Positions 18,816 through 48,562 of a stretch of 64,000 bases of DNA are shown piece by piece. The position numbers and the translations under genes were made by a program. This DNA comes from a virus (lineage: Duplodnaviria; Caudoviricetes): IMG/VR virus record IMGVR_UViG_3300018494_000083; one strand, given 5' to 3'. Under the pieces are notes generated by a model. It ran no database searches, was not told where the DNA came from, and saw nothing but the letters and a program-made list of their open reading frames with translations. Positions within the stretch are counted from its first letter, which is position 1, and every line of letters starts with the position of its first letter.

Positions 18816-19522
18816 ACTCCGAAGCCATTTATTCATATCTGGCAAGGAGAAGATGTATCACTGATTCATATGTCAGTCGTGTATGATAATGGAAATGGAT
18901 CTGTAAGATATATCGCAGGATTTGATGGTGTTCAACTCCAAGTTATATATACGACAAATATGCAGATAGTCGCTGGTCAAAAATATTATCAGGTGGAGAT
19001 AATACATTTGAGTCTGGGTCAGCGGATAGAATTTATGGTCTACTCCAAGATTTTATTATAATGAAAATCTAGTAGATGATAGAATGATATTAGTTAATGG
19101 AACTGTGGATATGACTATATATCCTTATAAAATGTATGAGTTACTCCAGGTCCATGGATGCTACCTTGGGGTCTTGATCAGATTTATGGGATTAATCAGT
19201 ATTCAAATCTCGGTGTTTCTTTTCCGACTAATCCAAATAATAAAGATGGTACTCCTGCTGGATATAAGATGCCAAACAATACCGATAGTCTATACACTCA
19301 GAGAATTATGCAAATGAGTGATAAAGGATCAGGGACAACACAATACATTCCAAAAAATAAGTATGGTATATTACTCCATCAAACAATAAACGATATAAGT
19401 ATGAAGAAAATAGATATTTTACATTTAATGAAACTGGTGATGTTGAAACCTGGTATGATATTCCTAATGCCGAGTATGAATTGTATACATTTTTATACTT
19501 CAACAGACAATATATCAAATAG
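18816..19522 (+). repeat. TP-cassette array B: 6 cassettes
   Basis: ACTCC at 18816, 18935, 19042, 19143, 19251, 19373 (spacing 119, 107, 101, 108, 122). Each unit is stop-free in its Thr-Pro frame. Confidence 0.85.
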
Positions 19523-19588
19523 AATCGCTGACCAACTCGTACTCAATCAGCACCTCCTATTTGCCTCTTTTTTCGTCATTTTTCAAAT

Positions 19589-19731
19589 GGGGAAAAGGAA
19601 GGAGAGAAGGGGGAAAGGGGGTTGAGAGAAAGAAAAAGGGGAAACATACCCCATGGGAACCGAGGGAGACCGAGGAGAGAAATCCCCCTCCGGAGGGAAG
19701 AATAGAAAGAAAAAAAATAAAGAGAAGAGAG
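19589..19731 (+). other. Purine-rich, G-tract non-coding segment
   Basis: Strongly A/G-biased on the + strand, with G-runs at 19589-92, 19609-13, 19617-21 and 19638-41. Confidence 0.6.
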
Positions 19732-19861
19732 TACTGAGTGAAGGTCGAAATAACGATTTAATTTCTCTTATAATTATATACTATACTATTGAAATAAGAG
19801 CTAAATATAAGATTTTATTTCAGAGTAAACTATTTATTAATAATTAAGGAGGAAATTAATT

Positions 19862-20083
19862 ATGGCTTTTAAGGATGTGAATAGAGATGTCTATATCGAC
19901 ATTCTACTCAAAGACCTTGCACGACAAACAAAGGCAAACACACTGCCTCCAAGTGCAGAAGTTATCATGCATTATATCAGAGAAGGCAATATGAATGATA
20001 ACGAGAAACTCAACAAACATGGAATGCTTGTGCGAGACGGAAGAGTCGTCATTCGCTCACGCAAATTAAATCCGATTAAGTAA
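19862..20083 (+). CDS. Hypothetical protein
   Basis: 73 aa with a strong AAGGAGG RBS. Confidence 0.7.
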   Translation: MAFKDVNRDVYIDILLKDLARQTKANTLPPSAEVIMHYIREGNMNDNEKLNKHGMLVRDGRVVIRSRKLNPIK

Positions 20084-20110
20084 TAAATTTCATTTAAAGG
20101 AGAAACACAA

Positions 20111-20641
20111 ATGGATACTATTAAGTCCCTGGTAGAGAGCAATGCCAACAACGCAAGAAAGACGAAGAACAATGATCTGTACTTCAAGATCGTTTGTGCA
20201 ATTTGCTCCGACGATTCTTACGTAGCTAAGAATGTAAAAAATATCACCGCTGATGGTGCTGTCATCACTGACGATCTCAAGCTCTCTGTAGCATTCAAGA
20301 GAATCCTCGCTCAGGTACTCAAGAAGAGCACCAGCATGACCGAGGCAGAGGCTTTCGAAGCAGCCAACGGTGTAGAACTCACAACTGATCAGGCTAAGAC
20401 CCTCATGCACATCATTCATGAAGCCGACTATATCATGATGAAGGACTGCAACAAGAAGGTTCAGATGTTCAATAAGCCTGGTTTCGATATCACTCTTTCT
20501 ATCGGCACAGCACCTGAGTCGATTCGTCCCAATCCTCAGAACAGAGCAGTATCTGTCAAGATTGAGGCTCATGACAGACTTCAGGTAAGCCAGAAGATCT
20601 TCGACTTCCAGAAGAAGACCGTAAAGACTCCCAAGAAGTGA
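20111..20641 (+). CDS. Possible HU/IHF-like DNA-binding protein
   Basis: The C-terminal PGFDITLSIGTAPESIRPNPQNRAVSVKIEAH resembles the HU beta-arm (GF...RNPQ...IxIxA). Highly biased codons, AAGGAG RBS. Confidence 0.45.
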   Translation: MDTIKSLVESNANNARKTKNNDLYFKIVCAICSDDSYVAKNVKNITADGAVITDDLKLSVAFKRILAQVLKKSTSMTEAEAFEAANGVELTTDQAKTLMHIIHEADYIMMKDCNKKVQMFNKPGFDITLSIGTAPESIRPNPQNRAVSVKIEAHDRLQVSQKIFDFQKKTVKTPKK

Positions 20642-20665
20642 TTTGAAACAAAAAAAATAAAATAT

Positions 20666-20702
20666 ATGGGAATAGCAACTTAATGCTATTCCCATTCTTT
20701 TT
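20666..20702. terminator. Bidirectional intrinsic terminator
   Basis: ATGGGAATAGCA-actt-aaTGCTATTCCCAT hairpin between convergent genes, with A/T tracts on both sides. Confidence 0.75.
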
Positions 20703-20705
20703 CAA

Positions 20706-21056
20706 TTATTTTTCTTTCGGACTAGAATTTTCTACCGTATCTTTCGGATGATCAATTTTAGCCACGACGGGAGGTTGAATGCCTTTGCGATTAAGAAAGG
20801 TATTCACCAAACTGATTCCTGTGTCGAGAACACGATCGATCGTTTCATCAGTAATATTGATGTTGATCTTAGTGTCGACACGTGCCGAATCAAGCACTCG
20901 GTCAAAAGTAGATTTCTTCTTATTATTTTTGACCTTATATTTTTTCTTCTTTGACTTTTTCTTTTTCTTCTTCTTGGGTTTATCTTCATCCAAGAAGTCG
21001 AACTTATCAAAGTCATCGAAGTCCAAATAAGAAGAATTAGTTTTTTTCTTGCTCAT
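20706..21056 (-). CDS. Lys-rich hypothetical protein
   Basis: 116 aa, AAGGAGG RBS, poly-Lys tract. Confidence 0.7.
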   Translation of the reverse strand: MSKKKTNSSYLDFDDFDKFDFLDEDKPKKKKKKKSKKKKYKVKNNKKKSTFDRVLDSARVDTKININITDETIDRVLDTGISLVNTFLNRKGIQPPVVAKIDHPKDTVENSSPKEK

Positions 21057-21177
21057 AAGACCTCCTTAGAGTTAGAATTGACTTGCTTTACCATATTTAT
21101 ATTGTATATTTAAATTATGGTACCGAAATTTTATTATTAAAAATAAGGCTATTATAGATAGCTTATGAGGTGAAATT

Positions 21178-21480
21178 ATGCCAGAAGTAATCAAACACAA
21201 ATGTGTGTACAGAGAACTGTCCGAGGATGGAAAGACTAAGGTTGATAAGGAAGGAAGATGCATCTGTACACTGGATATCCGTAAGAGATGTCCCAGAACT
21301 CAACCTTGTGTATTCTGTAAAGAAGATGCTCCTCATACTCCTGCGGAAATGATCGCCATTATGAAGACTAATCCGATGGAAGTAGTTGAAGATGTGTTCC
21401 TTGACAGAAAGCTCACAGGACATGAGAAACTCATTGCAGGAAAATTCGTAAAGAAGTATTACACGATTCCTAAAAACTAA
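21178..21480 (+). CDS. Small Cys-rich hypothetical protein
   Basis: 100 aa, GAGGTG RBS, six Cys in the N-terminal half. Confidence 0.7.
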   Translation: MPEVIKHKCVYRELSEDGKTKVDKEGRCICTLDIRKRCPRTQPCVFCKEDAPHTPAEMIAIMKTNPMEVVEDVFLDRKLTGHEKLIAGKFVKKYYTIPKN

Positions 21481-21491
21481 ACGATTGGAGA

Positions 21492-22418
21492 GTGATGCTT
21501 ATGCGAATCTTTTACTCCCCAAATATCAATAAGTTAATCACTTTGTATTTGATGGAGAATGACTATGATCTGTCTCTCAATAAGATAGATTATATCATAA
21601 ATAGTCGTCCAGATGTTTTGGAAGATTTATTAAGTATCATTCATCTTGTGCTTGAACACAAAAAATCGTTCACTATATTGGGTAGAGAGGCTATCCCTCA
21701 CGACAAGAAGTTTTATCTTCGAGCTTCGTTGAAGGATATAGTCTCTCACCTGAATAGTAACCCTGAAGATGATGACCTGAAATCTATATTAGATAAGATT
21801 CCATCATCTTTGATAAGTCAGTTGATTGAAGATCGAATCATCAGGCATAAGAAAAAAGATACATATTCTCCATTGTTTGCGTCCTCGAAGAAGGACGTAC
21901 AACTCTCTATTTTTTTCCTTGATGACATGCAAGAACTCGACGGCAACCTAGCGATTTGTAAAAGATTGCGGTTTCCACCCGAATTAATTAGAGAGCTTTT
22001 CCCACTTACCATTAGGTTATTCATACCTAAGGACATTACCTTTTCCGTCCCTGATGGAAAGTTGATATATAAATCTCCACTATTCGTTAAAGATCATCTC
22101 ATAACTGAGAATCTTAAAGAATCTTCTAAACGAGAAAGAACTCTTGCTAAGTATAAAGCAACGATTGATACTATGCTATATGAGACCACTGGATGTGAAA
22201 TGTATCTATCTGGAAATACTGTCTACTCTACAATCATCACAATGAATATCGAAGATTGGATAAGATTCATAGATACCACATCTAAGATTGATCAGAATTA
22301 TGATCATCCTGTAGTTAGTGCAATTCCATATTTTGCTTATCAATACAGACATCTATATGAACTTCTCGGAACTCATGAGTGGAGAATGAATCTAAGTAAA
22401 ATTGTAAAAGGAGGTTGA
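21492..22418 (+). CDS. Hypothetical protein
   Basis: 308-aa ORF in an operon. Confidence 0.7.
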   Translation: MMLMRIFYSPNINKLITLYLMENDYDLSLNKIDYIINSRPDVLEDLLSIIHLVLEHKKSFTILGREAIPHDKKFYLRASLKDIVSHLNSNPEDDDLKSILDKIPSSLISQLIEDRIIRHKKKDTYSPLFASSKKDVQLSIFFLDDMQELDGNLAICKRLRFPPELIRELFPLTIRLFIPKDITFSVPDGKLIYKSPLFVKDHLITENLKESSKRERTLAKYKATIDTMLYETTGCEMYLSGNTVYSTIITMNIEDWIRFIDTTSKIDQNYDHPVVSAIPYFAYQYRHLYELLGTHEWRMNLSKIVKGG

Positions 22419-22963
22419 CTATGTCTTCCTACTTACATAAAGCGATCATCCTCGCAAATTGGCATCCATCTGATAAAGAGCAACTTCAAACTGTCGTAAT
22501 GGAAACGAGAGGAATGAAAGTTTGCTCAGTACTTTATGTTGATGATGCAGGATCTATTAAGTCGGATAAAGATACCGTTAAGGCTAATCTCAAATCTGAA
22601 CTTTATAGTGATATGTACGATGATGATCTGAAGATAAAGGTTAAAGAAGCATTCGACGGTAAGGATGCTATCAAATATATAGTAAAGTATCTCGACAAAA
22701 TCTGGGATGAGGAACTTCAGGTTTACTTCTACCACCCAGATGAGGATACTTACGAACTTCTCCAGAAGAAGATAGAGGAAACGAATGGAAGAATCTATAT
22801 GGATGACTACCATTCTATTTTCTCTGATAAACGAGACATTGCAAAAGATATTAAAGAGATTATGCGAGATGAGGGTCTTAAGATGGAAAATCTCATCGAT
22901 GACTCACAACTCTCCTTTGTTTATTATCTCACTGCACTTGTCGAAAGATTGAATACCAGATAA
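22415..22963 (+). CDS. Hypothetical protein
   Basis: 182 aa, AAGGAGG RBS (ATG at 22421 likely). Confidence 0.7.
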   Translation: MTMSSYLHKAIILANWHPSDKEQLQTVVMETRGMKVCSVLYVDDAGSIKSDKDTVKANLKSELYSDMYDDDLKIKVKEAFDGKDAIKYIVKYLDKIWDEELQVYFYHPDEDTYELLQKKIEETNGRIYMDDYHSIFSDKRDIAKDIKEIMRDEGLKMENLIDDSQLSFVYYLTALVERLNTR

Positions 22964-22986
22964 TCAGTAAATTGTCTGCTTATTGG

Positions 22987-22998
22987 AACATTTCAATA
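22987..22998 (+). promoter_or_regulatory. Putative late promoter AACA-N6-TA
   Basis: AACAtttcaaTA upstream of 23023. Confidence 0.5.
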
Positions 22999-23022
22999 TA
23001 ATGAAAGAGAGGATACATATAC

Positions 23023-24093
23023 ATGATTTGGAACGAAACACCGAGCGACTTCATCCTGTTGGGAGCTGATATGTTGTCTCCAGTTAATAAGAATGACGTT
23101 GTTCTAATTCACAGAAACAAGTATATGCGGATTTTCAAATCTGGATACAATAATAGTCCAGTAGATATTAATATCATTGAACAAGCTCTGGAAATTTTGC
23201 TCTCTAGCGATGACGGACTTTCTGATATGGTTGACTCTTATATTGAATATGCGTTCAATAAGGAGGCTCCATTCTGTCCGGTTGTCTGCACTAAGAGAAT
23301 GGATTGGTGCTTAAACCAAATTCGATATATTCACGAAAAGGATAGACTTCTTTTCAGAGATATCTTCAGCATCGGAATTGTAGAAACAAATGATAATATC
23401 GATTCTCCTGAATGGAAAAAGTTTGTTAAATACATGAATCTGAAGTTTAGGGATCTCACTAAGAAGTATCCTTTATTTGAGCACTTCCATCTTTATGATG
23501 ATTCTACCGATAATGACTACCGTATTCTTACCTTAGAATGTGGCAATATCGTAGACTGGCAACCAAAGTTCAATAAAAACACCACTATTATTACAACTAA
23601 TAACCCCACAGTTATCAATGCCTACCGAAAGGTATCTGATAGCTATAAGTTATTCCAGTTCAATCCAGATAGTATCTCTCACATGAAACCGCATGTAGAA
23701 ACCCACGTTGAAACCTTTACTCGTATTCATAACTGCAAGACTGCTCAGGAAGTCATTGAGATGTATAGAACTATCAATAATAATATCATGGGCTTTCTCA
23801 ATGGATATGAGAGAGGTAATGAAGATGATGTATCTATCGACGCTTATAATACATTCATTTATTCACTCACCGATGATATCGAAGCAGTGAATGTCTTGAA
23901 GGATATTGAGATCGAAGATCCGTCACTTCTTGATGATATGTATTGTATCATTAACACATGCTTAATGTATATTAAGGACCGCTATATGGGTCAGGTTGGA
24001 CTTCATTCTGAGGTCTCTACTATGGCTATCATTTATAGAGGTCAACTTATTCGAAATAAAGATTTGTTAAAACAAATTAGGAGGTCACTATGA
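23023..24093 (+). CDS. Hypothetical protein
   Basis: 356 aa, GAGG RBS. Confidence 0.75.
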   Translation: MIWNETPSDFILLGADMLSPVNKNDVVLIHRNKYMRIFKSGYNNSPVDINIIEQALEILLSSDDGLSDMVDSYIEYAFNKEAPFCPVVCTKRMDWCLNQIRYIHEKDRLLFRDIFSIGIVETNDNIDSPEWKKFVKYMNLKFRDLTKKYPLFEHFHLYDDSTDNDYRILTLECGNIVDWQPKFNKNTTIITTNNPTVINAYRKVSDSYKLFQFNPDSISHMKPHVETHVETFTRIHNCKTAQEVIEMYRTINNNIMGFLNGYERGNEDDVSIDAYNTFIYSLTDDIEAVNVLKDIEIEDPSLLDDMYCIINTCLMYIKDRYMGQVGLHSEVSTMAIIYRGQLIRNKDLLKQIRRSL

Positions 24094-26117
24094 TTGAACT
24101 TATTAAATCATTATGTGAAGATGTAAACACATCTGTTAACGATGCGTATGCTGATGACGCCGATGCACTCGGCTCAGCTCATGTTAACTTCTCTAACTAT
24201 GCAAAGAAAAAGCTTGAGCAGACTGTATCTAAAATAAGAGCAATTATATCTGGCTTTGAAGACATCAAGGTTAGAGGAGAGAATGAGTTTTGTCGTCAGT
24301 ATGTGCTTTGTCCCATGGATGGCAAGGAATTCTTTATCCTTAAGGAAGAGTATGAGAAGGAACTTGATAAGATCTTTACTCATGCTGCTACTCTCGATAG
24401 CGACTGCGTTCAGGACTATCTCAGAAAAGAATTCATCGGTCTTGTTATCGTAGATAATGGAACCTTTGACTGTGAAACTTATGATTGTCTCAAATCTAAG
24501 CTCACTGAGAAAGTTGATTCCATGGGTCTTAACGACACATTTATCAATAGCTTCGTAGAGAGAACCAAAGGTTTTATTCTCGAAGCTCAGGAGATCCTTG
24601 TTGGTCTTACCAATAAGATTCTCAATGATAACGTAACTACTGTCAAGGACTACGAGATTGCTGTTGAGATGGTTAATGAAACTGAAAAGTTTGTTAACAC
24701 TCTCGTCGAAATCTATACTCAGTCTTATATCAGAATGTATGAGGCTACCAAGGAAAGACAGAGTTCCGAAACTCAGGTCGCTGCAGATCAAGCATACGGC
24801 GATCTCACTAAGATTGAGGGTGAAGTTGAGAAGTGTAAAGCAGTCCAGGATAAATGGGTTGCTATTCACAGCGAACCCAATGTCGAGCTTGATAAGAAGA
24901 TTCAAACTCTCACTGAGAAGTGTGCAGAAGCAAGACAGAAGTATATTTCTTGCAATGAAGAGGCTACTAAAGAATCCGAAGAGTCTGTCGCAAAGTATAT
25001 TCAGAGTCTCAATGCTTGTGTAAAAGAGATTCGTGATTTCTATGCTACTTATGAGCGTAAGGAATTTCTTGAGTCTCGTGAGAAGAGAATTGAAAAGATG
25101 GAAGACTATGTAAAGGGTGCACTTGAAAGAAAGTATCCTTTGAGAATTCCGCTTTATAAAGTTGATAACGCATCGAAGGATGTCAAGGAGATTATTCGTA
25201 ATGAATTTATCCCTGCTATCTCTGAGATTGCTGACAAATATAAAGAGTATATTATTCTGGCTCCTAAGTTTGACGATGAGTCGGATGATATGTTTATCTA
25301 TCTTACCCTTCGTGAACCTCATGGCGATGAAGGTGATAAGGAAGTAAGAGCTGCTGATATTGATGAGAAGACTATCAATGAAGCCGCTGAAAAGATTTTC
25401 GTAAAGCCTAACGGTGATTACATCGTACATTCCAATGGTGGTTGTGCTGTGTATAGCTCTCATGATGTCTATAAGGGTCACGTAAGTGGCGAGACTGATG
25501 AAGAGTGCATTAAGAACTTCAAGCTTAATAAACTCACCGAGGCTGCTGATCTTCCTGGTAAGGGAGATTATTCCATCGATAAAGATGGTCGTCTCTATGT
25601 AGTAACTCTCAATGGACAGTTTATCGGTAACGGCGGCTCCTATGATGAAGCTCGTGAAATTATCGATGATGATATCCGTGAGAAGAAGCACGCTACTCAG
25701 AATGAGGCGACTCTCACAGTTGAAGAAAGAAAGCAACTGAAGAAGTCTGACTTTGGTGTTCCTGAGATTATGGGTTATCCCCTTAATGATGAGGAGCATA
25801 TCAGAAAGGCTATTCAGTTCTTCCAGTATTGCAAACCTCAATATAAGGACACTCTTGCAAAGAACATCGTCAAGAAAGTTATCGAATTCCGTCTTGTTGG
25901 TAAGGTGAATATCACTGCTAAACATCCTGGAAAGAAGTACTTCCCTGAGTGGATGCTCGATACTGCAAAGCCTGAGTTGAAGGTTGACGAGGACAACACA
26001 TATACCATTACTGTAGATGGAAAGCAAGTTGCAAGTGGAACTATCCACAAGGAGACTGAGTCCACAATTAATGAGTCGGTAATTATCGATCCTAAGACTG
26101 GACATTTCTATCTATAA
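24090..26117 (+). CDS. Hypothetical protein, possible processed virion protein
   Basis: 675 aa, coiled-coil N-terminus, repeated INEA/LTEA/QNEA/INES motifs separating small domains. Confidence 0.65.
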   Translation: MIELIKSLCEDVNTSVNDAYADDADALGSAHVNFSNYAKKKLEQTVSKIRAIISGFEDIKVRGENEFCRQYVLCPMDGKEFFILKEEYEKELDKIFTHAATLDSDCVQDYLRKEFIGLVIVDNGTFDCETYDCLKSKLTEKVDSMGLNDTFINSFVERTKGFILEAQEILVGLTNKILNDNVTTVKDYEIAVEMVNETEKFVNTLVEIYTQSYIRMYEATKERQSSETQVAADQAYGDLTKIEGEVEKCKAVQDKWVAIHSEPNVELDKKIQTLTEKCAEARQKYISCNEEATKESEESVAKYIQSLNACVKEIRDFYATYERKEFLESREKRIEKMEDYVKGALERKYPLRIPLYKVDNASKDVKEIIRNEFIPAISEIADKYKEYIILAPKFDDESDDMFIYLTLREPHGDEGDKEVRAADIDEKTINEAAEKIFVKPNGDYIVHSNGGCAVYSSHDVYKGHVSGETDEECIKNFKLNKLTEAADLPGKGDYSIDKDGRLYVVTLNGQFIGNGGSYDEAREIIDDDIREKKHATQNEATLTVEERKQLKKSDFGVPEIMGYPLNDEEHIRKAIQFFQYCKPQYKDTLAKNIVKKVIEFRLVGKVNITAKHPGKKYFPEWMLDTAKPELKVDEDNTYTITVDGKQVASGTIHKETESTINESVIIDPKTGHFYL

Positions 26118-26145
26118 CTCTATTAATATTAAGTGAGGTATTGAT

Positions 26146-26859
26146 ATGAGAATTCCAAGGGTATATAAACGAGACGGAACTTCTGACCCGAGTATCAAGA
26201 AAACGATTCTCGAAGTCGAAGCACTTCCTGTCGTTGAGTATGATCCTGATGTAGACTTTGATGATGACAAATCGGTCAATCGCTATATAAGAGCCATCAA
26301 GGGAGCTATCAGATCATCCAACGAATACAAGAGACTTATGCGATTCCTCAAGGATAAGTGTGAGTTTAACAAGTGTTTCTTCTTGCCGAGAGTTAAACGT
26401 ATGAGAGATAGCAATATCATGATCGAGATGCATCATACGGGATTTGTAATGGAAGACATTATCGTCACAGTTCTCAGAAAGAGATATAGTGAAAGAGAAG
26501 ATTATGGTGTGCAGGCAGTAGCCGAAGAGGTTATGTATGAGCACTATAATGGTAACATTTCGTTGACTGCTTTGTCATCGACTATGCACTCTCTTATTCA
26601 CGAAGATGATAGTGGACTCTTTATCCCGCTTCAGATGGTTGATTATGGCGATATCAATCTCTTCGTTGAGAAGTACAAGGAATGGGTTCCGAAAGAGACA
26701 ATGAAGAAATTCAGTCAGTACCAGATTCTCAGTTCTGCTATTGCACGAATTGATGATATTATTCCTGACTATCTTGATAGAAACTTTATCTTCTTCAAGA
26801 AAGAAGGAGTCGAAGTACCTGATATGAATAAAATTCTTGAGCTTATTGAACTCGAATAA
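26146..26859 (+). CDS. Conserved jumbo-phage protein with HNH-like His motif (paralog of 40111-40761)
   Basis: IEMHH...EDII...EHY...MHSLIH...LFIP, shared with the 40111-40761 protein. Confidence 0.5.
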   Translation: MRIPRVYKRDGTSDPSIKKTILEVEALPVVEYDPDVDFDDDKSVNRYIRAIKGAIRSSNEYKRLMRFLKDKCEFNKCFFLPRVKRMRDSNIMIEMHHTGFVMEDIIVTVLRKRYSEREDYGVQAVAEEVMYEHYNGNISLTALSSTMHSLIHEDDSGLFIPLQMVDYGDINLFVEKYKEWVPKETMKKFSQYQILSSAIARIDDIIPDYLDRNFIFFKKEGVEVPDMNKILELIELE

Positions 26860-26865
26860 AATAAC

Positions 26866-26897
26866 GCAGATAGGGAGAAATCCCTATCTGCTTTTTT
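26866..26897 (+). terminator. Intrinsic terminator
   Basis: GCAGATAGGGA-gaaa-TCCCTATCTGC + T6. Confidence 0.85.
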
Positions 26898-26917
26898 GTG
26901 TTTTCTTGGATAGTGCT

Positions 26918-26927
26918 TATACATTAT
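26918..26927 (+). promoter_or_regulatory. Putative early promoter motif TATACATTAT
   Basis: Exact 10-mer recurring at 26918, 33431, 49325, 54221 and 59632, always intergenic and upstream of non-structural gene blocks. Confidence 0.6.
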
Positions 26928-26985
26928 AAATGTGAATAACGGCATGTTAAAGAAAAAAGTAATATTTGAAAAGGAGGAAATAATC

Positions 26986-27495
26986 ATGTCGAACAAAGAA
27001 ACCTATACACCTCGCAGAAAAACTGCAGACCGAGCAAACATTCCAAAGTCTCAGCAGGAGGCTTATGACATTCTTGATAAACTCAGAGAATGTCCTAGTT
27101 TAATCCCCGATGATCTATCCAAGAGACCGACTAAAGAATTAATGAAGGTCTGTGCAGAAACCATACAACAAATTCATGTTGGAAGTGCATCTCTTCGCGC
27201 ATACGCAGTTGATACTAAACGCGAAATTGAAAACCTTGCGAATGATGTCAAGATTCAAAGTGAGATGCTCAATCGTCTTTACCTTGACGTTATTATGAAG
27301 GCTATCAATATCTTATTCTATACTAACGAGTGTGTAAGAAATTTGGTAACTAACGACAATCGCAAAGAACTATCTGAGATTCTTAGGACTTTTAATCATT
27401 TGTATAAAATTCTTGCAAATGAAAAAAGATCTATTGAAACCATGATCGACACACTAAAATTCATATCGGTGAAAATATGGGGAGATGAACAATGA
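26986..27495 (+). CDS. Hypothetical protein
   Basis: ORF 26932-27495; ATG at 26986 follows AAGGAGG. Confidence 0.7.
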   Translation: MSNKETYTPRRKTADRANIPKSQQEAYDILDKLRECPSLIPDDLSKRPTKELMKVCAETIQQIHVGSASLRAYAVDTKREIENLANDVKIQSEMLNRLYLDVIMKAINILFYTNECVRNLVTNDNRKELSEILRTFNHLYKILANEKRSIETMIDTLKFISVKIWGDEQ

Positions 27496-27791: not shown

Positions 27792-27793
27792 TC

Positions 27794-39542: not shown

Positions 39543-39609
39543 TGGTTATTCCTCCATATAATATGATTATCCTAATGTTTTTGACTGAATAATTCGGTAC
39601 ATAATGAGT

Positions 39610-40066
39610 CACCAATTTTATCATATGGAGCATATATTTGATCTGTGCTATTTCCATATTCTCGTATTTTAAACTGTCGTATCTCTATATTATCTTGTGT
39701 TAAAATTAATGATAATGGAGTCACCATCTGGCATCTTTATAGTACCGCCATCTCGAGCCGTTCCAGTCTCATTCACTCTGGAACCTTCATCTTTATATAT
39801 TGTGCCATATTGTTCTTGATACCAATATGTGTGTCCTGGAGTACAAACACCAATGTAAGCATTTGACTGGTATGACCACAAATCAGCATATCCGAGCTGT
39901 CCCTGTTTATAGTGAATATTCCATATTTGACTTGCAATACGTTCCGGTATATTTGTCTCGATAACAGGAGTCCAACACCAATAGAATAACCATACACTAA
40001 CGATGTCATCAGGTTTCCAGTAAGATGTAGATCCATGTTTACATCATCTCGTATTATGTCTGGAGT
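39610..40066 (-). repeat. TP-cassette array C: 4 cassettes
   Basis: Minus-strand ACTCC starting at 40066, 39971, 39842 and 39721 (units of 95, 129, 121 and 112 bp). Each is stop-free and ends IGV/IGVC/DG/IG. Confidence 0.85.
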
Positions 40067-40074
40067 AAGCAAAC

Positions 40075-40104
40075 AAAAAGTGGTAGAGATTTCTCTCTAC
40101 CACA
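40075..40104 (-). terminator. Intrinsic terminator immediately upstream of array C
   Basis: Minus strand GTGGTAGAGA-gaaa-TCTCTACCAC-TTTTTG. Confidence 0.8.
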
Positions 40105-40110
40105 ATTATA

Positions 40111-40761
40111 TTAATATTTTTCCATGTATTTTCCGATCTTTTCGACTGCGCTTCTGAGAAGCAAATAGTCATTGTCTGTTGCTTCATACTGTTTGCACAT
40201 TCTAAAGTACTCTTCCATAGTAAATAGATGTTCTTTTCTGAATCCCTTCTTGAAATCCTTGATGAATCCCATGAGATCACCGATAGCCTGATCCATATGA
40301 ATGAACAGCTTACCTGAGTGACACATCTGGTGATTTGTCTCGGTTAATCCCATAACTACCTGGATTCGACCAATCTCATGCTCAGTAAGAACGATATCTG
40401 CAACCTTAAAGGTACAAACTTTCTCGTCGTTTGCGAGAAGATGGTCGGTCACAATGCTTACAATATCGTAAAGTGTAAACAGAGGACCATGGTGCATTTC
40501 AATGGCAGTATTCGGGAAGCGATTACTATCAATACCAGCCTGGAATACATCTCGTGTGTAACCGAGCTTCTTCAACTCGGAAATATAATTAGTATATCTG
40601 GGATCTTTACGGACCAAATTCTCAACAGCTTTCACAAACATATTGAAGGTATCAGGGTCTTCAAGATCACCACGGTTAAGATACATTTTGCAAATATCAC
40701 CGCTTTTAGGAGCGACGACTTTGGGATTTTTATTACCCTTATTTTCAAATTTGCTCTCCAT
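40111..40761 (-). CDS. Conserved jumbo-phage protein with HNH-like His motif (paralog of 26146-26859)
   Basis: IEMHHGPLFTLYDIV...EHE...NHQMCHSGKLFI. Confidence 0.55.
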   Translation of the reverse strand: MESKFENKGNKNPKVVAPKSGDICKMYLNRGDLEDPDTFNMFVKAVENLVRKDPRYTNYISELKKLGYTRDVFQAGIDSNRFPNTAIEMHHGPLFTLYDIVSIVTDHLLANDEKVCTFKVADIVLTEHEIGRIQVVMGLTETNHQMCHSGKLFIHMDQAIGDLMGFIKDFKKGFRKEHLFTMEEYFRMCKQYEATDNDYLLLRSAVEKIGKYMEKY

Positions 40762-40816
40762 AACAGATCACCTCGTGAACTAATTTAATACTTTTTGGAC
40801 ATTCTAATATATAATA

Positions 40817-43800
40817 ATGTTCGAAACAGGAGGTAAATTTATGGAATTAACGCCTCATATTAAGGTTTTATTTGACGATCTTAACCAATTGATCAAAGGC
40901 ATCGTCGTGAAAAGACCTGACATTGCGATGGAGCGAGAAGCCGAATTGGATACCTTGTCTCTTGAGATGTATTATGCGTATCGAGACATTATCAACGGCG
41001 TAGATTCTGTTAGTTCTTACAACTCCATTCCAGCAGAGGTGTTAAAAACTCTTGTTGGATGGACACCCGTTGAAGATGGTTCTGTTTTCGTAAAAGCTAA
41101 ACCTGGAACCGGATCTATTCCCAATCCGAACACTGTAACCGACCAGCACTATGCATATAGAGCTCCTACTCCTGCCGATCAATTAGAACCTGGAACTTTG
41201 TGGGTTCATAAGATTGGTAAAGAGTATTACACTGAGATTCATTCCGAGATCGGTAAAGGAATCTTTGGCTCTATCCTGGTCGAGATAGATGATTCTACCG
41301 ATTACGGATTGGGTAAGTTTATTGATTCTCAATCTCGTCAAGTTCGTCCATATATCGAAGAAGCTTTCGTTTCTTGGGAGCTTGTAGACACAGATCTTTA
41401 TGATCAATATGGAAATCTGTACACCTATGTGACGAATAAACACTACATTCTTGATGAGATTACAAATAGCTATATCGAGATTGAAAATCCCGCAGCTAAC
41501 CAGCCAACTCTCGTAAGGAGATATTCACTTGGTTATAAATATGATAGACCTATTATCATAGGAACTAGGAATGAATATATTCCTGCTGATGAATTCGAGT
41601 TGGTAAACCATAAATATAATATCATAAGAACCTCGATTGTAGAGTTCAACGGTGAGTACAAACATATCACCGAACTCGACGAATATCAACTCAGTCTTCT
41701 TGAAGATGATGTTCCTATGTACTACGAAGTTATCGAAGTACAGAAGTCGGCAGATGCTAATGACATCACTTTCGAATATATGTTCGAGACAGACGACGAT
41801 GGCAATCCTAAGAGAACGACTAACATCAGACTTTCATTGACTGATGTAGAGATTCAAATCGATAATGATTACTATTACGTCGAGGATGCTAATGGTTCTT
41901 ACATCTTCGATGGAACAAACTATATTTGGGATCTTGACACACCGTCCAGTTTCCGATATTCTAAAAAGAAAGCAGAAGATGATATAGATAGATATAGCTT
42001 CTCTGCTGGTATATATACTGCCAACCCGAATGGTACATATACTTACATCTGTAATGACTGTATGTATTATATAGCTGAAAAGGTGGCAGACCTTACAAAT
42101 AAGCCTATTACAAGTATCACTGACCTGGATTATAAATTCTGGGAAAGTGCACGGTATGCAATGAGAGAATACATCATTGCAAATTATTGTCCTGCTCGAA
42201 ATCCTGCAGACTATCAGATTCCTCTCTATACAGGAGAGTCAAGCACCTATTACAGAATGCTTAATGGTCTGCCTGCTACGACGGATAAGAATGTTCCTAA
42301 GCTTGATAGAATGCTTATTGATCCCTTCTATGAAGGAACTAATACAAATCCCTATGTTTGGGAATTGACTGATAGAGAGATTGAAATTATTGAGGAGAAC
42401 GGAACTTTGGCTAAACTGAAGGCTGACTATCCGAAAGCTGAATATCTCTACTATCTCGGTAAGAATAGAATCGACGTAGTAAAAGCAAGAGATGCTCAAC
42501 CGTTTGATATTCTTCGAATTGGAGATAATGAGAATCAAAAACACATCGATCTTTTCTATCTTACTTACGATAAAGTAAAACGATATATTCTCGGTCGTTA
42601 TTATCAACCTGAACTCTTCCAAGAGTTTAACCATTACGTATCTTATCTCGGATTTATCATCCTCGCTAATACAGTAATCAACTGTATTACTCAGTCGAGT
42701 GATATTCTGATTTATGATGGATACATGGATGATAAGACTGTGAATAATATTCTGGATAGCTTTGGTTTCGAAGGAAAATTCGCAAAGCTTCCTACTATAT
42801 ATAGAAAGATGGTAGCCAAGAATATCATGATGCTTCTGAAGTACAGAGGCACTGATAAGGTCTATGACATCATCTATAACATCTGTGGCGTAACAAACTA
42901 CGATGTATTTAACTTTGAGATCACTAACCTGAAGGACCAAGATCTTTTAACGGTTATCAAGAAGTCTGTACTTGGTAAGGGTGAAAATAGCACTCTTACT
43001 GTAGAAGAACTTATTGAGGGTGATGATCTCTGGCAACTTGGTGTAGATACTATTGCTGCACTTGACTTCTTCAAGAGTGGAACAAAGTACATCGAGTTGG
43101 AAAATATTTTTGACCTTTCCGAGCTTGCATTGAATAACTCTTTCCTTCTGAACTATCTGATGGATCTCTCCAAGAATAGGCATATTCCTGTTGATGTTCC
43201 TAATGTCGGAATCTTCGAGTTATTCGATCTCATTGCTGCATTGTTTGCTATCCAATCGATCAAGTTTGGATACACTGGAACTATTCCTACCACCCCTGCA
43301 GCTGCTGCAAGTGTCTATAAATTTAATATCGACCAAGCTCTCAGTGGAGATCAGACTGTAAGAAGTATTCTGGAAACTTATGGTTCTAGACTTTCTGGTA
43401 CAAGTCTGAAGAATATCAATCATCTTCTCGAGATGCTTAAAACTACATCTTCGGTAGTTATCCCTGCACAAACAAGCGAAACTGTAAGATCTCTTGCAGA
43501 TGGATACTTTGATACTATCAGAGAAGATTCTCCTAATACGAATCTGAATGAGAATAGTTTCTATAAAGAAATCTTGAGACTTCGTGATACTGCAAGTAAT
43601 ATCGATGAATATAACTGCTACACTGAGATTCTTGATTGTATTCTCACTTCGTCAGTAACTGCCGATAACTTTAAACTAGATAATCCTGTATGGGAACCTA
43701 TTTTTGCAGGCACCTATGTAGGAAATCCTGAATCGTTCAATAAAGCAAATTACACTGCAAGTAAGTGGGCATACGGTGAAGACCTGTCTGTTATTTATCC

Positions 43801-44614
43801 TGATATCATTAACACGTCTCTTTATGAAGATAATGTGGTAACTGAGAATACTCTCGATGATAATGGTAAGGTTATTCTGTTTGCCTATAATATGGCTCCT
43901 GGTATGGTAGATGATCTTCTTGATCCTACTAAAGAGAACTATTATATGCTTCTCGAGCCTACTGCAATTGCCAATACTTATAGTGTAACTATCTATAAGA
44001 AATGCTATACTGCGCTTACCTACACCATGTATGTAAGAGAGCAGTGTCCTGATCTGTATAATCACATCTATGCAATTACAATCGATGATACCTATGTTAT
44101 CGATGCCTATGATACCGTATTCTCCGTTAGTGCTGCGTTCATTCGTGTTACTAAAGAGAATGGTGTTACTGTAATCGATTTCGGTGATGAGTCAAACTAT
44201 CATCTCATAGATAACGACTCGGATGGAGACATCGACCTTATTGCGCTCAGAGATGCAAGAACTATCACATATCAGGAATATTATCAGATCCTTGAACACA
44301 ATGCTGATACTATCTACAAGTCAATCATTGCAAAGATTGAGAGTCTTATCAACTCTAACCAGTTGAGAAAGAATCTTGTCCTGTCTCATGAAAGTGTAGA
44401 GAATGTTGTATCTTACATTGAGTTGCTTGTCAACATGTTTAAGGCTTACAATGCTGATATTCGAAAGAATAATATAATCTATGAAATCTCCAATAAAACC
44501 AATAACTCACTTCGTTTGTTTGATGTATTTAGCATGGATGTTAATACTCACAAGAAGGATGAGATTGGTATTTATGACGATCTTGAAATAACTATACATG
44601 GAGGTAATGAATAA
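40817..44614 (+). CDS. Large virion structural protein (baseplate-wedge-like)
   Basis: 1265 aa. The YYRMLNGLP and LLKYRGTDKV motifs are typical of jumbo-phage baseplate proteins. Start may be ATG 40841. Confidence 0.55.
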   Translation: MFETGGKFMELTPHIKVLFDDLNQLIKGIVVKRPDIAMEREAELDTLSLEMYYAYRDIINGVDSVSSYNSIPAEVLKTLVGWTPVEDGSVFVKAKPGTGSIPNPNTVTDQHYAYRAPTPADQLEPGTLWVHKIGKEYYTEIHSEIGKGIFGSILVEIDDSTDYGLGKFIDSQSRQVRPYIEEAFVSWELVDTDLYDQYGNLYTYVTNKHYILDEITNSYIEIENPAANQPTLVRRYSLGYKYDRPIIIGTRNEYIPADEFELVNHKYNIIRTSIVEFNGEYKHITELDEYQLSLLEDDVPMYYEVIEVQKSADANDITFEYMFETDDDGNPKRTTNIRLSLTDVEIQIDNDYYYVEDANGSYIFDGTNYIWDLDTPSSFRYSKKKAEDDIDRYSFSAGIYTANPNGTYTYICNDCMYYIAEKVADLTNKPITSITDLDYKFWESARYAMREYIIANYCPARNPADYQIPLYTGESSTYYRMLNGLPATTDKNVPKLDRMLIDPFYEGTNTNPYVWELTDREIEIIEENGTLAKLKADYPKAEYLYYLGKNRIDVVKARDAQPFDILRIGDNENQKHIDLFYLTYDKVKRYILGRYYQPELFQEFNHYVSYLGFIILANTVINCITQSSDILIYDGYMDDKTVNNILDSFGFEGKFAKLPTIYRKMVAKNIMMLLKYRGTDKVYDIIYNICGVTNYDVFNFEITNLKDQDLLTVIKKSVLGKGENSTLTVEELIEGDDLWQLGVDTIAALDFFKSGTKYIELENIFDLSELALNNSFLLNYLMDLSKNRHIPVDVPNVGIFELFDLIAALFAIQSIKFGYTGTIPTTPAAAASVYKFNIDQALSGDQTVRSILETYGSRLSGTSLKNINHLLEMLKTTSSVVIPAQTSETVRSLADGYFDTIREDSPNTNLNENSFYKEILRLRDTASNIDEYNCYTEILDCILTSSVTADNFKLDNPVWEPIFAGTYVGNPESFNKANYTASKWAYGEDLSVIYPDIINTSLYEDNVVTENTLDDNGKVILFAYNMAPGMVDDLLDPTKENYYMLLEPTAIANTYSVTIYKKCYTALTYTMYVREQCPDLYNHIYAITIDDTYVIDAYDTVFSVSAAFIRVTKENGVTVIDFGDESNYHLIDNDSDGDIDLIALRDARTITYQEYYQILEHNADTIYKSIIAKIESLINSNQLRKNLVLSHESVENVVSYIELLVNMFKAYNADIRKNNIIYEISNKTNNSLRLFDVFSMDVNTHKKDEIGIYDDLEITIHGGNE

Positions 44615-45408
44615 TGATGAATGAGAAATTCAAGTTTTCTGAGTCCATGCAACTGGACAATGGAAAGCTTATTATGTCTAACCATGCTTCCGGTAGAATT
44701 GTAGGAGAGCTCGAAATCAAAGGATTCGACCAGACTGGTAGAATGCTGTTTAAACGAGTTGAGCATAATGATGTAATTCTCCCTGGTTCGATCTTTGTTC
44801 TTGAGCAGATGTTTAAGAAGAAGGCAGCCGATCGTAGATTACATCCTGTTTCTATGAATACCGGAATCGCACAGTTCGGAACTGTAAATCTTACATCTTC
44901 TTGGACTGAACCTGAAAAAATCAACGACGAATTTGTCTTTGGATTTATGGCTGGTAACGGCGGTGCAAGCGTTACTGGTGCACATCCTGTAAGATATAGT
45001 GCTACTTCATTGATTGACGGATCTGGAAATGCATCTTTCCTTCCCTTCCGTATTATCAATGCAAGTCTGGCACAACCTACAAACTACGGTCTTCCTGTAC
45101 TTAACAATGGTAACTATATGTACTTCGCAAAGAAGTTCAGTACAGACCCTTCCATTGTAATTGCAGATAATACCGCTTATGCACAGATGCAGCTCGATAT
45201 CACTGCACAGGAATTCAGAGAGTATTTCACTCTTGGTGGAATTACTGAAAATGCAGGTATTAATCAGATCGGTCTTGTGGCTGGTCTTCATAACGTATCT
45301 GCTGGTACTTACGATGATGTCAAGCTCATTACAACTGCTAACTTTACAACTATTGATCTTACCGAAGACACAAGTTTCACAATCACTTATAAGATCTATT
45401 GCTTATAA
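44614..45408 (+). CDS. Putative structural (baseplate/tail) protein
   Basis: 264 aa, beta-rich, ending INQIGLVAG...TITYKIY like tail-collar/baseplate proteins. Confidence 0.5.
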   Translation: MMNEKFKFSESMQLDNGKLIMSNHASGRIVGELEIKGFDQTGRMLFKRVEHNDVILPGSIFVLEQMFKKKAADRRLHPVSMNTGIAQFGTVNLTSSWTEPEKINDEFVFGFMAGNGGASVTGAHPVRYSATSLIDGSGNASFLPFRIINASLAQPTNYGLPVLNNGNYMYFAKKFSTDPSIVIADNTAYAQMQLDITAQEFREYFTLGGITENAGINQIGLVAGLHNVSAGTYDDVKLITTANFTTIDLTEDTSFTITYKIYCL

Positions 45409-45417
45409 TGAGGAGGT

Positions 45418-46662
45418 ATGATCATGGCTGTAAATACTGTGCTTAAACCTGAAAGAGAGCTGACCGCTGAAGAGGTTGCTGAAGTTCTTGCTCTTGAGAG
45501 TAAAGATATTTGTGCAACTCTTTTCAAAAAGTGGTTTGCGAGAAAACCTGATGGTGGAGAGCCTCGTTTCTATGTAAATAACTACTTCCGTCTTCCCACA
45601 AGTAGATTCAATACTAAGAGAGAAGTATGGACAACGATAGGTATTTACATCGCTAACCTCCATCTTATTCAACCTAACTTTGCCAGTCTCTTGGGTTATG
45701 TAAATAAACCCTTTACTGGTAAAGAAATTGGTCGAATCGAATCTATTCTGTCAGACGCTCTTTATCATGATAAGATCAGTACAGATGCTATGGCTGATTA
45801 CTATAATCGACTCCAGTGGCTTGGTGGTGATAGAACGATCTCTTTGATTTCACCTTCTATTACCACTGCCCTGTTGAGGGAGCCTACGGAAATCATTGAA
45901 AGAAAGAAGCAACTCTTTGAGCAATACAAAGATGAACTTCGTGATGATAACCCGAATAACGCTATTGTTGCTGCTCGTATCGAGAAAGAGCTTGTTCAAA
46001 TGGCAGAAGAATTCCTTCACACGCAGGATGGTTGTGAGAACTTTGATTCTAAGTCAAAGGTCAATGTTGGCAACCATTATAAGAATATGAATATCATGAA
46101 GGGACCCATCAAAAACAGTTACAGTGGCGGTTATCGTGTAAACCAATCAAACTACAACAGTGGTATTACTAAAGAAGAATACTCTTCGTTTGCAGATTCC
46201 TCTGTTCTTGGTGCATACATGAGAGCCGTTAATACTGAGAAGGGTGGACACATGGCTAAGCAGGCTAACCAGGGTCTTAGTGGTATTGCTGCTGCTCCTA
46301 AAGGAAGCGACTGTAAGACTACTAAGTATCTGAGAGTCTTCCTGCATCCGAAGTCTAAAGAAGAATACCTTAACAGATATATCGTAGTTGACAAAGAACT
46401 TATCGAGCTTACACAAGAGAACTGGTCTACTTATGAGAATACATGGGTAGATATGAGATCTGCTATGTATTGCCTCGAGAAAGAACCTTGCTTCTGCAAT
46501 ATCTGTATCGGTAACCAGCCTTATCTGCTCGGACTTGAGAACTTCGGTCTGGCAGTGAGCCGCATCCCTAATAGACTTCTTGGTATCTCCATGAAAGCCT
46601 TCCACGACGCAACCGTCAAATCGATGGCTATCCCGCTTGATGATATCTTTGAATTCACTTGA
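45418..46662 (+). CDS. RNA polymerase beta' C-terminal fragment (probably virion RNAP)
   Basis: Bridge helix AVNTEKGGHMAKQ, SDCKT, Zn site RSAMYC...CNICIG, trigger loop ISMKAFHD; co-transcribed with structural genes. Confidence 0.85.
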   Translation: MIMAVNTVLKPERELTAEEVAEVLALESKDICATLFKKWFARKPDGGEPRFYVNNYFRLPTSRFNTKREVWTTIGIYIANLHLIQPNFASLLGYVNKPFTGKEIGRIESILSDALYHDKISTDAMADYYNRLQWLGGDRTISLISPSITTALLREPTEIIERKKQLFEQYKDELRDDNPNNAIVAARIEKELVQMAEEFLHTQDGCENFDSKSKVNVGNHYKNMNIMKGPIKNSYSGGYRVNQSNYNSGITKEEYSSFADSSVLGAYMRAVNTEKGGHMAKQANQGLSGIAAAPKGSDCKTTKYLRVFLHPKSKEEYLNRYIVVDKELIELTQENWSTYENTWVDMRSAMYCLEKEPCFCNICIGNQPYLLGLENFGLAVSRIPNRLLGISMKAFHDATVKSMAIPLDDIFEFT

Positions 46663-46673
46663 TAAAAAAAATA

Positions 46674-46710
46674 ATCCCTCATAGGTCATAAGCCTATGAG
46701 GGGTTTGTTT
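46674..46710 (+). terminator. Intrinsic terminator immediately upstream of array D
   Basis: CCCTCATAGG-tcataag-CCTATGAGGG followed by TTTGTTT. Confidence 0.75.
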
Positions 46711-46713
46711 GTC

Positions 46714-48562
46714 ACTCCGGCAACCAAAATACTATCAAGTTCATATTGGTCTCCAAATATTTTTAACGCTATAAATGGATCAGTAACGATTCATGATCCA
46801 AGAACTAAAAATGGTGTATCAACTCCACAATATGATCTTAACTGGATAATGTATTCCTATATCGAGATGTCATATGTTACTGATATTGGATCAAAGAAGT
46901 CCTGTTATCCAACTCAACAAGTCGGTGACCATACTCAATACCAGAATAAGCACTACCCATACTATCACCTGGCATTATTCTCCAAAACTGATCTTGAAAT
47001 CGAACTTCAGGTTCTCTTATAGGAGTAATTCACCATGAATATACCAGTCTACACGACAAGCGTAAGTTCCCAATGGATATCCTTCTTCTGTAATTCCTTC
47101 GATCATATTTTCATCTACTACATTTAAAGTTCTGTGTCGCTCTATTGGAGTTATCACCAATCGGTGTACCAGGTGTATACCACCAAGAATTGGCATCCCC
47201 AATTTCAGTTGGTGTAAACCATCTATTTTTTTCATATTGATGGCGTGGATTATTAGATGGAGTAAGTCACCATTTAATGTATCTGGTATATGCACCCAAG
47301 ATTTAGGGATACCGTCTCTATCAGTATCAAAATATCTATGCTGTTCATATGTGGGTCCAATATTACTTGATGGAGTTTATTGTTCCACCATGAATATGGA
47401 AAGCCGCATATGCGTTGCTCCATGTTTTACCATCTTTATCTATAACTGGTACATTATTATGAGTTACTAAACCTCCTTGATACCAATATGGAATATTATC
47501 CGGAGTAATCACCCGGTTCAGCCCAATTTATTCCAATTCCATAAGAACCATACCCGAAAGCCTGTATTATGGTTTCATAATATGCAGTTCCATCTTTTGT
47601 AAACTCATCTGGAGTAACACCTATAATCCATTCTACGCCACTGCCAGACCGAAGTTCTCCTGTTCGATGAATATAATTTCCATAGTTTGCTTTAGATGTA
47701 ACTAACATATCTGGAGTAATGCACCATTTATATCAGCAGCGCTAAATCCGGAAAGTATTACCTCGCCATCCTTTTCAATAGCAGTGTGTAAAACATGTCC
47801 ATTGTTTGCGCCGTCCCAATAATGATGGAATGGAAATGGAGTCCATACTCTGTAGCAGAATAAAAAGCGACGTTTGTAGATCCATAAGGACCTATATAGT
47901 GAAAAGTTCGTGGACTTTCCCATTCTTGATTTAGATTTATTTTAATTGGTGGAGTATATCATACGATTTACCAGCTATTTCTCCATCCATATATGTACAA
48001 TACCCAGCGTCAGACATTTTATACCAACGCCCTGGAGAATATTCATCGTGATAATGATCAGGAGTAGATTTCTCATACTTTATACTAACATTAGCATCTT
48101 CCGTTGTACTAGTCCCATAAATATTTATTCTATAACCATGGTTGGTTAACCAAAGGCTTTGCCAGTATGGTGATGATGGAGTCGCAAACACCAGGTTTAA
48201 AGTATTGGTTATATTCACAGTCAAAGACATTCCATCCAATTGCACCTTTTCCATCTGGGTATATCGAACCATAGTAATTCATAGATTTATTTCCATCTAT
48301 GAATGTAGGAGTGGTACCATACGCAAATGCATTAAGATATGCTTGAGAACTATAGCCTTGATGTTGAATATCTCGATAGAGGTATGTGGTTGATCCGTCT
48401 ACATCATGTGGAAAATAAGTTCCATTAGGAGTAGCAAACACCTGGTCCATTCCAGCCAGAATTCCAGCCATATTGAATACCACCATGTTTATTAGAAAAG
48501 ACAAATGTATTTACACTAATTACATTCTCACCAAACTCATTTTGATAGTAATGATAAGGAGT
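46714..48562. repeat. TP-cassette array D: 2 plus-strand + 14 minus-strand cassettes meeting tail-to-tail
   Basis: Plus-strand ACTCC at 46714 and 46822. Minus-strand ACTCC starting at 48562, 48432, 48312, 48182, 48065, 47955, 47842, 47717, 47615, 47506, 47376, 47263, 47151 and 47026. All are stop-free in the TP frame. Confidence 0.9.

Follow-up and report, generated by a model that had tools for sequence, protein, structure and literature searches.

Known sources of phage host-range variation are point hypermutation by diversity-generating retroelements (DGRs), invertible segments and recombination between phages. Silent-cassette systems such as pilS and vls operate by DNA recombination. The DUF6273 domain is a C-type-lectin-like DGR target, in which the variable region (VR) forms a surface β-hairpin (PMC10743442; bioRxiv 10.1101/2024.10.15.618418). 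Here we describe arrays of short cassettes, each beginning with the pentanucleotide ACTCC, in 64,000 nucleotides (nt) of DNA from a member of the Caudoviricetes (IMG/VR record IMGVR_UViG_3300018494_000083; this whole stretch is hereafter called the window). The cassettes are probably a silent donor library for the VR of a DUF6273 domain, into which single cassettes are copied so that the whole VR is replaced. We demonstrate coding constraint on the cassettes, the acceptor, exact cassette/VR identity together with its boundaries, and varied VRs in otherwise identical acceptors. The window (G+C 38%) encodes a phiKZ-like split multisubunit RNA polymerase (RNAP), a tape-measure-like protein of 2,347 amino acids (aa) and virion structural proteins, which mark it as part of a jumbo phage. 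Exact copies of its proteins are present in about 30 metagenome samples, on contigs of up to about 262 kb, and public assemblies include about ten complete genomes of about 260 kb.

The cassettes are named by start coordinate and strand in the window; the prefixes Z_ and Y_ denote units of upstream arrays outside it. The arrays are as follows.

18816..19519, + strand: array A, intergenic, six ACTCC-anchored cassettes (18816, 18935, 19042, 19143, 19251 and 19373)
39575..40066, - strand: array B, intergenic, four cassettes (40066, 39971, 39842 and 39721)
46880..48562, - strand: array C, intergenic, 14 cassettes, identical in the near-clonal sample L007
46714..46932, + strand: two cassettes (starts 46714 and 46822) in opposite orientation, convergent with array C
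1..155, + strand: tail of a 13-unit array begun upstream of the window (L001 7818-9256), last ACTCC at 45

Units in the window arrays are 95–130 bp long. Junction alignment reveals that the 5-nt ACTCC at every start is the sole invariant DNA among them. On the 5′ side of each ACTCC stands a ragged GGT(GTTTGC) followed by 0–14 unrelated nt; the 3′ ends of cassettes retain 2–10 nt of acceptor constant sequence. There is no repeat of 19 bp or more and no conserved site beyond 5 bp at the junctions, and the units within an array are in direct orientation. No recombinase is found among the genes flanking the arrays, and Rfam and tRNA scans of the window gave no match. The convergent pair at 46714-46932 (+) lies at the distal end of array C, directly 3′ of an RNAP-subunit terminator hairpin, and these are the sole convergent units seen.

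A preliminary description of this DNA had proposed that the units cannot be translated where they stand. The units it listed are all present, each starting ACT-CCN, and on this point it was right. The ACT-CCN frame is stop-free in 26 of 26 window units, against 6 and 0 of 26 for the other two frames, and the frame changes at 16 of 21 unit junctions. The units are therefore coding, yet cannot be read through in place. Over all units collected, 75 of 76 are open in this frame; the lone cassette with an internal stop is Z_8619 (L001 8619-8732).

Where, then, might the cassettes be expressed? With all cassettes as queries, tblastn detected no acceptor elsewhere in the window. The phage collection contained no similar record, a scan of viral contigs with the RNAP subunit found no relatives, and exact-pattern scans of viral and metagenome contigs returned nothing usable. 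A second strain (ENA ERZ28654356 scaffold_29, 262 kb; loci L008 and L012) carries upstream a headless, non-translated VR copy, consisting of 20 constant codons ending YWWLR, then ACTCC, a cassette-like segment and GGTGTTTGCTTCGGG. A phmmer search with this copy led to P0019, a protein of 1,878 aa with LRR_5 repeats and a DUF6273 domain (PF19789, E 4e-10). The domain match ends at a VR that has the same constant flanks as the headless copy, and the segment between them is the orthologue of cassette 47615(-). The predicted expression site of the cassettes is thus the VR of the DUF6273 domain in a leucine-rich-repeat (LRR) protein of about 1,880 aa, which is probably a host-binding protein. Following the fold assignment of PMC10743442, the VR is placed in a C-type-lectin-fold domain; our own AlphaFold2 (AF2) prediction for the domain, with 13 near-identical sequences as input, had a pLDDT of 40 and was too poor to confirm the lectin fold.

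We took as the acceptor set the 90%-identity cluster of P0019 plus two sister clusters, with proteins of 1,873–1,886 aa. Across 13 aligned acceptors, invariant sequence extends over the 127 aa that precede the VR and the roughly 40 aa that follow it, and the VRs in between are mutually unrelated and 31–43 aa long. The set yields at least 15 distinct VRs, 14 in full-length proteins and one in the fragment P0042. The acceptor alignment also brings out a loose plan common to all cassettes: TP, a mid Gly and a terminal Gly.

Five acceptor VRs match cassettes of this strain: that of P0029 equals 47506(-), and those of P0019, P0033, P0032 and P0035 resemble 47615(-), 47026(-), Z_8733 and Y_193, respectively. 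The three window cassettes concerned lie in array C.

47377..47506, - strand: donor cassette 47506, equal to the acceptor VR of L015 at 120 of 121 nt, ACTCC through GGTG
47507..47615, - strand: cassette 47615, whose orthologue occupies the acceptor VR of a related phage (L014/P0019; 95 of 105 nt)
46880..47026, - strand: cassette 47026, a homologue of which occupies the acceptor VR in P0033 (score 126)

The first of these defines the boundaries. Identity between 47506(-) and the L015 VR starts at ACTCC and stops after GGTG, and the lone mismatch is C to T. The L015 gene, encoding P0029, comes from JGI sample 3300018493, which is also the source of L001 (99.99% identical to the window). This sample and its relatives are of ruminant-type gut origin. 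Cassette 47506 thus stands in the array, both in the window and in L007, while a copy occupies the L015 acceptor, on separate contigs and not on one phased molecule.

Several further observations concern the acceptor and its surroundings. Directly upstream of it, a 3,690-aa LRR protein is encoded (L014/L015 1-9929), and of the two giant LRR proteins only the second has DUF6273. A second VR locus, the headless one, lies at L012 6659-6865 (-), with about 60 nt of homology to the acceptor upstream and 27–80 nt downstream. The headless locus of scaffold_29 carries a cassette other than that in its acceptor. JGI samples (P0031, P0039, P0043 and P0030) contain all four junction combinations of LRR body or headless leader with full C-terminal domain or truncated tail; these are either products of real recombination between the loci or assembly ambiguity over a repeat of about 260 nt. 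In P0045 (54 aa, on a 903-bp JGI contig) the acceptor upstream arm (FLINDSPNYTYWWLR) is joined at ACTCC to a 47615-type cassette and then to array sequence (...PGDYS). Whether P0045 arose as an intermediate of transfer or as a chimera of assembly, it implies a subpopulation with a 47615-type VR. Array open reading frames (ORFs) of other strains (P0046-P0051) place the 47615-type cassette beside at least three different upstream neighbours, one of which (TPDILIQNGLAKYG...GIEWTEPS) resembles its own paralogue. These varied neighbours indicate that movement or replacement affects entire cassettes, with ACTCC as the boundary.

Stored cassettes are under purifying selection that is specific to the ACT-CCN frame and much weaker than that on ordinary genes. 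Evidence comes from orthologous cassettes of different strains. Ten such cassettes of array Y (L004 versus L008) have a proportion of synonymous differences (pS) of 0.245 and of non-synonymous differences (pN) of 0.086, giving a dN/dS ratio (omega) of 0.31 (p 2e-9); the four genes adjoining this array have pS 0.136, pN 0.006 and omega 0.04. In array A, four cassettes compared between the window and strain L006 have pS 0.41 and pN 0.24 (Fisher p 0.002), and the downstream non-coding flank is about 99% identical. When the 12 ungapped orthologous pairs (array Y plus two from array A) are pooled, omega is 0.33 in the ACT-CCN frame (Fisher p 8e-11) and a non-significant 0.90 and 0.82 in the shifted frames. 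Arrays are identical in near-clonal samples (99.99% identity); differences from strain to strain include insertion and replacement of whole units. The preliminary description had argued that selection acts on the encoded peptide, hence that the units are expressed elsewhere, and had named a ratio near 1, with indels at random places inside units, as what would speak against this. Orthologous cassettes, at 0.33 in the true frame, bear out that argument, as does the acceptor; the evidence offered for it at the time, from paralogues, was insufficient, for the reasons that follow.

That evidence came from a subfamily of three cassettes, here called TPSNN, distributed over two arrays and compared by pairwise score and codon check.

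19373..19483, + strand: TPSNN member 1 (score 89 against 47263 and 56 against 47376)
47152..47263, - strand: TPSNN member 2
47264..47376, - strand: TPSNN member 3, tandem neighbour of member 2

Homology was assessed by local BLOSUM62 alignment with the invariant TP removed, over the 1,431 pairs among 54 cassettes and 28,620 shuffled pairs. These 54 are the cassettes of this strain, from the window and two upstream arrays on L001 and L004. The trio scores 89 (19373/47263), 56 (19373/47376) and 56 (47376/47263), whereas no shuffled pair exceeds 50 (0 of 28,620). The reported gap-free alignment of 19373(+) with 47263(-), at 17 of 31 identities, is reproduced, the synonymous pairs between them are exactly TCA/TCT, AAC/AAT, CGA/CGC and GGT/GGG, and 47376(-), scoring 56 to each of the other two and so above all shuffles, is indeed a third member. 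Nucleotide identity within the trio is about 61% without gaps, and the same codon is used at 13 of the 17 conserved residues in the first 31 codons. Judged by these sequences, 19373, 47263 and 47376 are true homologues.

The weaker pairs proposed alongside them fared less well. The pair 18816/47842 scores 36, a level with a per-pair p of about 0.003 that chance should produce about five times in 1,431 pairs; 47955/39721 and 48562/48312 lie outside the top 30 pairs. The ending PGVC common to 48562 and 48312 is carried-over constant-region sequence (GGTGTTTGC = Gly-Val-Cys) and not cassette homology. The suggestion of homologous subfamilies across arrays therefore holds for the trio but describes a rare situation, with only three clusters (8 units) among the 54 cassettes. 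The other two are Z_7924/Z_8036/Y_1103, which spans two arrays, and Y_1558/Y_1662; the remaining 46 of 54 are singletons. Subfamilies would be old duplicates of one cassette that have since diverged, some remaining tandem neighbours and some now in different arrays.

As a record of selection the trio has little to say. The claimed divergence at synonymous sites is not measurable, identity being flat over codon positions (21, 22 and 20 of 33; 18, 18 and 18). The NG86 method gave omega 0.35–0.54 with pS 0.5–0.65, near saturation. Pooling ungapped paralogous pairs for the proposed dN/dS gave omega 0.42 in the true frame versus 0.46 and 0.58 in the shifted frames; the BLOSUM score of the comparison, at 87 in the true frame versus 48 and 18 shifted, hints at conservative replacement. 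We rejected dN/dS on the paralogous trio as evidence of selection, since shifted frames behave similarly and codon-position identity is flat. Four synonymous differences between saturated paralogues that lack a frame-specific signal therefore cannot carry the selection claim.

What machinery might move the cassettes? Downstream of the acceptor, in both L014 and L015, two genes are followed by a 164-aa ORF and, after a 426-nt gap, a reverse transcriptase (RT) of 367 aa; this ORF and the RT lie 3.7 kb downstream of the VR. The RT (L015 19698-20801) matches RVT_1 (E 2.4e-20) and carries GAPFSQ aligned at the DGR GxxxSQ motif-4 position; its PDB matches include 8ub7, a 328-aa RT. Its sequence (RVT_1 plus [LIV]GxxxSQ) classes it as a DGR-type enzyme. 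The 164-aa ORF has no Pfam, NCBIfam or PDB sequence match, and an AF2 single-sequence model of the protein is all-helical with four long helices, at low confidence (pLDDT 46). The gap between this ORF and the RT shares just 17 nt (ATGGTGTTTGCTTCGGG) with the target, and it is this element that borders the VR. No template repeat matching the VR was found beside the RT: the 133 nt before the 17-nt element are unrelated to any VR and lack ACTCC. L014 and L015, strains about 94% identical overall, have almost the same sequence throughout the gap. An RT was also sought about 36 kb upstream, and this candidate region was rejected. There, scaffold_29 (L012) holds a Cpn60-like gene and only the headless VR copy, with no RT; the RT adjoins the full-length acceptor instead.

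The preliminary description had argued against DGR mutagenesis because differences between units are not restricted to adenines. That observation stands, as 13 of the 28 differing nt between 19373 and 47263 involve no adenine; what it could not take into account is an acceptor 3.7 kb from a DGR-type RT. Only 2 of the 9 differences between cassette 47615 and the L014 VR fall at cassette adenines, and bases at differing sites of orthologous cassettes mirror overall composition. With neither an adenine bias nor a cognate template repeat, classical DGR mutagenesis is not what diversifies the cassettes. The position of the acceptor near a DGR-type RT nevertheless makes a DGR-derived machine the prime suspect for their movement.

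We hypothesize that each cassette is one alternative VR (about 31–43 aa: Thr-Pro ... mid-Gly ... Gly) near the C-terminus of the LRR protein, the gene for which would lie elsewhere in the phage genome of about 260 kb. One cassette at a time would be copied between ACTCC and the start of the constant GGTGTTTGCTTCGGG, the whole VR would be replaced and the donor would stay in its array. Periodic expression of each cassette would thereby keep its frame and peptide under purifying selection, weaker than that on ordinary genes. We infer, with roughly even confidence, that the copying is done by the adjacent DGR-type RT with its predicted helical 164-aa partner, the most plausible mover. Priming would take place on the RT's own RNA, whose only retained part would be the 17-nt constant 3′ end. 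At the GGUG(UUUGC) microhomology the enzyme would change to an array transcript as its template and copy this back to ACUCC, after which the cDNA would integrate at the ACTCC of the target. If this route is correct, array transcripts should exist, as should cDNAs of about 110–130 nt that start in CCCGAAGCAAACACC and end in GGAGT. More tentatively still, and falling somewhat short of an even chance in our estimation, a DGR lineage might have given up adenine mutagenesis, its RT now template-switching onto cassette transcripts and retrohoming a complete, pre-tested cassette into the lectin loop. The same RT may build and reshuffle the arrays, which would account for their ragged 3′ ends, for the varied neighbours of cassettes and for ACTCC being two-fold depleted in the rest of the window.

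Transfer could also proceed at the level of DNA, by gene conversion, by replication template switching via the ACTCC and GGTG microhomologies, or by a nuclease or recombinase, with the RT a relic or employed in another role. Such a route would fit the lack of adenine bias in cassette/VR differences and of a VR-like template in the RT-proximal RNA, and it has its precedent in the classical silent-cassette systems (pilS, vls), which use DNA recombination. We consider it rather unlikely, though still the strongest competitor, given that flanking homologies of 5 nt and 2–10 nt are far under the needs of RecA-type conversion and that no recombinase gene is seen beside any array. Moreover, what the RT-proximal RNA has conserved is precisely the 17 nt adjoining the VR, in a gap nearly identical between L014 and L015.

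Other alternatives question whether the cassettes are donors at all. Arrays might be archives, concatenated copies (for example cDNAs) of past VRs that are never reused and whose open frames are inherited, and ragged 3′ ends (2–10 nt of constant region plus 0–14 unrelated nt) do look like the ends of independently made copies. This seems improbable to us: the frame-specific omega of 0.33 among orthologous stored cassettes, with 1 stop in 76 units, means that selection acts on cassettes while they are stored, the arrays are identical in near-clonal samples, and the cassettes to which VRs of related strains correspond are ones that several strains conserve in their arrays. It is more improbable still that subfamily members resemble one another through convergence forced on them by the lectin scaffold instead of common descent. 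The loose TP ... mid Gly ... terminal Gly plan does explain weak matches such as TPxPFxHxWxG; it does not explain a trio with about 61% gap-free nucleotide identity and the same codon at 13 of 17 conserved residues, and the other 46 of 54 cassettes, under the same scaffold constraint, show no such similarity. The last alternative, that the arrays derive from a repeat-protein gene that frameshifts disrupted and that has decayed, is already contradicted and in our view retains almost no credibility. Head-to-tail units of similar length might suggest it; yet every unit keeps its own frame exactly from the invariant ACTCC, the units are mutually unrelated in sequence, and an intact protein contains them as complete VRs.

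A donor library that feeds the DUF6273 VR, moved perhaps by the RT, is thus the reading we prefer, and several points weigh against it. Acceptor locus and window are different contigs of one sample and not one molecule. None of the acceptors found has a VR of the TPSNN type; searching proteins with the trio profile gave only P0001, an ORF running through the orthologous array A of strain L006, so the use of the TPSNN subfamily is something we can only infer. The paralogue comparison itself yields no frame-specific dN/dS signal. Cassettes show more synonymous divergence than the flanking genes (pS 0.245 versus 0.136), from which it follows that cassettes also recombine with other lineages or mutate at a raised rate, and this could distort omega. 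As regards the RT, the adenine bias that is a hallmark of DGRs is absent, both in the C-to-T mismatch of 47506 and in the cross-strain comparison (2 of 9 at adenines). The 164-aa protein could not be identified as Avd, and the case for involvement of the RT consists of its position and the 17-nt element.

Three other features of the window were noted. ACTCC and its complement GGAGT occur 68 times, against 100 ± 10 expected from dinucleotide shuffles; removal of 27 array sites leaves 41 outside the arrays, a roughly two-fold depletion. This could reflect avoidance of a signal for the cassette machinery, or of Shine–Dalgarno-like GGAG. Array A is followed directly (window 19500-19790) by about 220 nt rich in purines, which a long-range stem closes through pairing of approximately 19517-19545 with 19730-19765 (minimum free energy z-score -2.1; no Rfam match). 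The stretch is about 99% identical in strain L006 despite highly diverged adjoining cassettes, and could be a structured RNA or a regulatory element. Between the split RNAP subunit genes, 51115-52080 (+) encodes a 321-aa GIY-YIG protein (Pfam match on L007), likely a homing endonuclease.

In our literature search DUF6273 appeared as a DGR target, but no account turned up in which cassette arrays supply such a target or the receptor-binding protein of a phage. If we are right, this phage has within its genome a large library of receptor-loop modules, ready-made and already tested by selection, of which one at a time is put in place. Such a system would join two mechanisms thought separate, retroelement-based diversification and silent-cassette antigenic variation, and with the RT as driver it would give a virus a receptor switch of the 'pick one from a library' kind. 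An RT that moves cassettes would also be a natural means of precisely replacing a segment of about 110 nt by microhomology alone, which is relevant to DGR biology and to genome engineering. The many natural acceptor variants are a direct test of how far a lectin scaffold tolerates unrelated loops, and the sequence signature ACTCC ... GGTG can be searched for elsewhere.

How does this locus compare with known systems? It is closest to DGRs (the Mtd of Bordetella phage BPP-1 and the DUF6273 targets of gut phages, PMC10743442) in the architecture of the acceptor. The VR is in the C-terminal part of a predicted C-type-lectin-like (DUF6273) domain of a phage surface protein, an RVT_1/GxxxSQ RT with a small, predicted helical protein upstream is nearby, and the RNA region immediately preceding the RT contains a second copy of a short constant element found at the 3′ edge of the VR. 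Unlike in DGRs, no VR-matching template repeat stands beside the RT, just the 17 shared nt. Sister genomes have VRs of unequal length whose differences run from end to end and are not confined to adenine-templated positions; dozens of array cassettes at scattered sites act as the donors, and no adenine-specific change is observed.

In its economy of one expressed acceptor and many promoterless, headless donors in arrays, the locus resembles silent-cassette conversion (Neisseria pilE/pilS, Borrelia vlsE/vls and chicken immunoglobulin pseudo-V genes). Donors are likewise kept open by selection, and transfer would be non-reciprocal, leaving the donor in place, to judge from separate contigs of the same sample. 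The differences are that this is a virus genome, that a whole cassette is replaced and not a mosaic of segments, that flanking homology is only 5 nt and 2–10 nt in place of extended conserved flanks, and that an RT is linked to the acceptor. Shufflons and invertases (R64 Rci/PilV, Mu Gin and Mycoplasma vsa) also store alternative C-terminal adhesin segments side by side; here, by contrast, the units of an array all point the same way and are remote from the acceptor, with no recombinase among the flanking genes and no repeat of 19 bp or more, only 5 bp being invariant. Finally, the gp38 adhesin of T-even phages has short receptor-contact segments bounded by conserved Gly-containing motifs, as the cassettes do. 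The gp38 segments stand in frame in an expressed gene and are exchanged between phages, whereas the cassettes described here are held in silent arrays.

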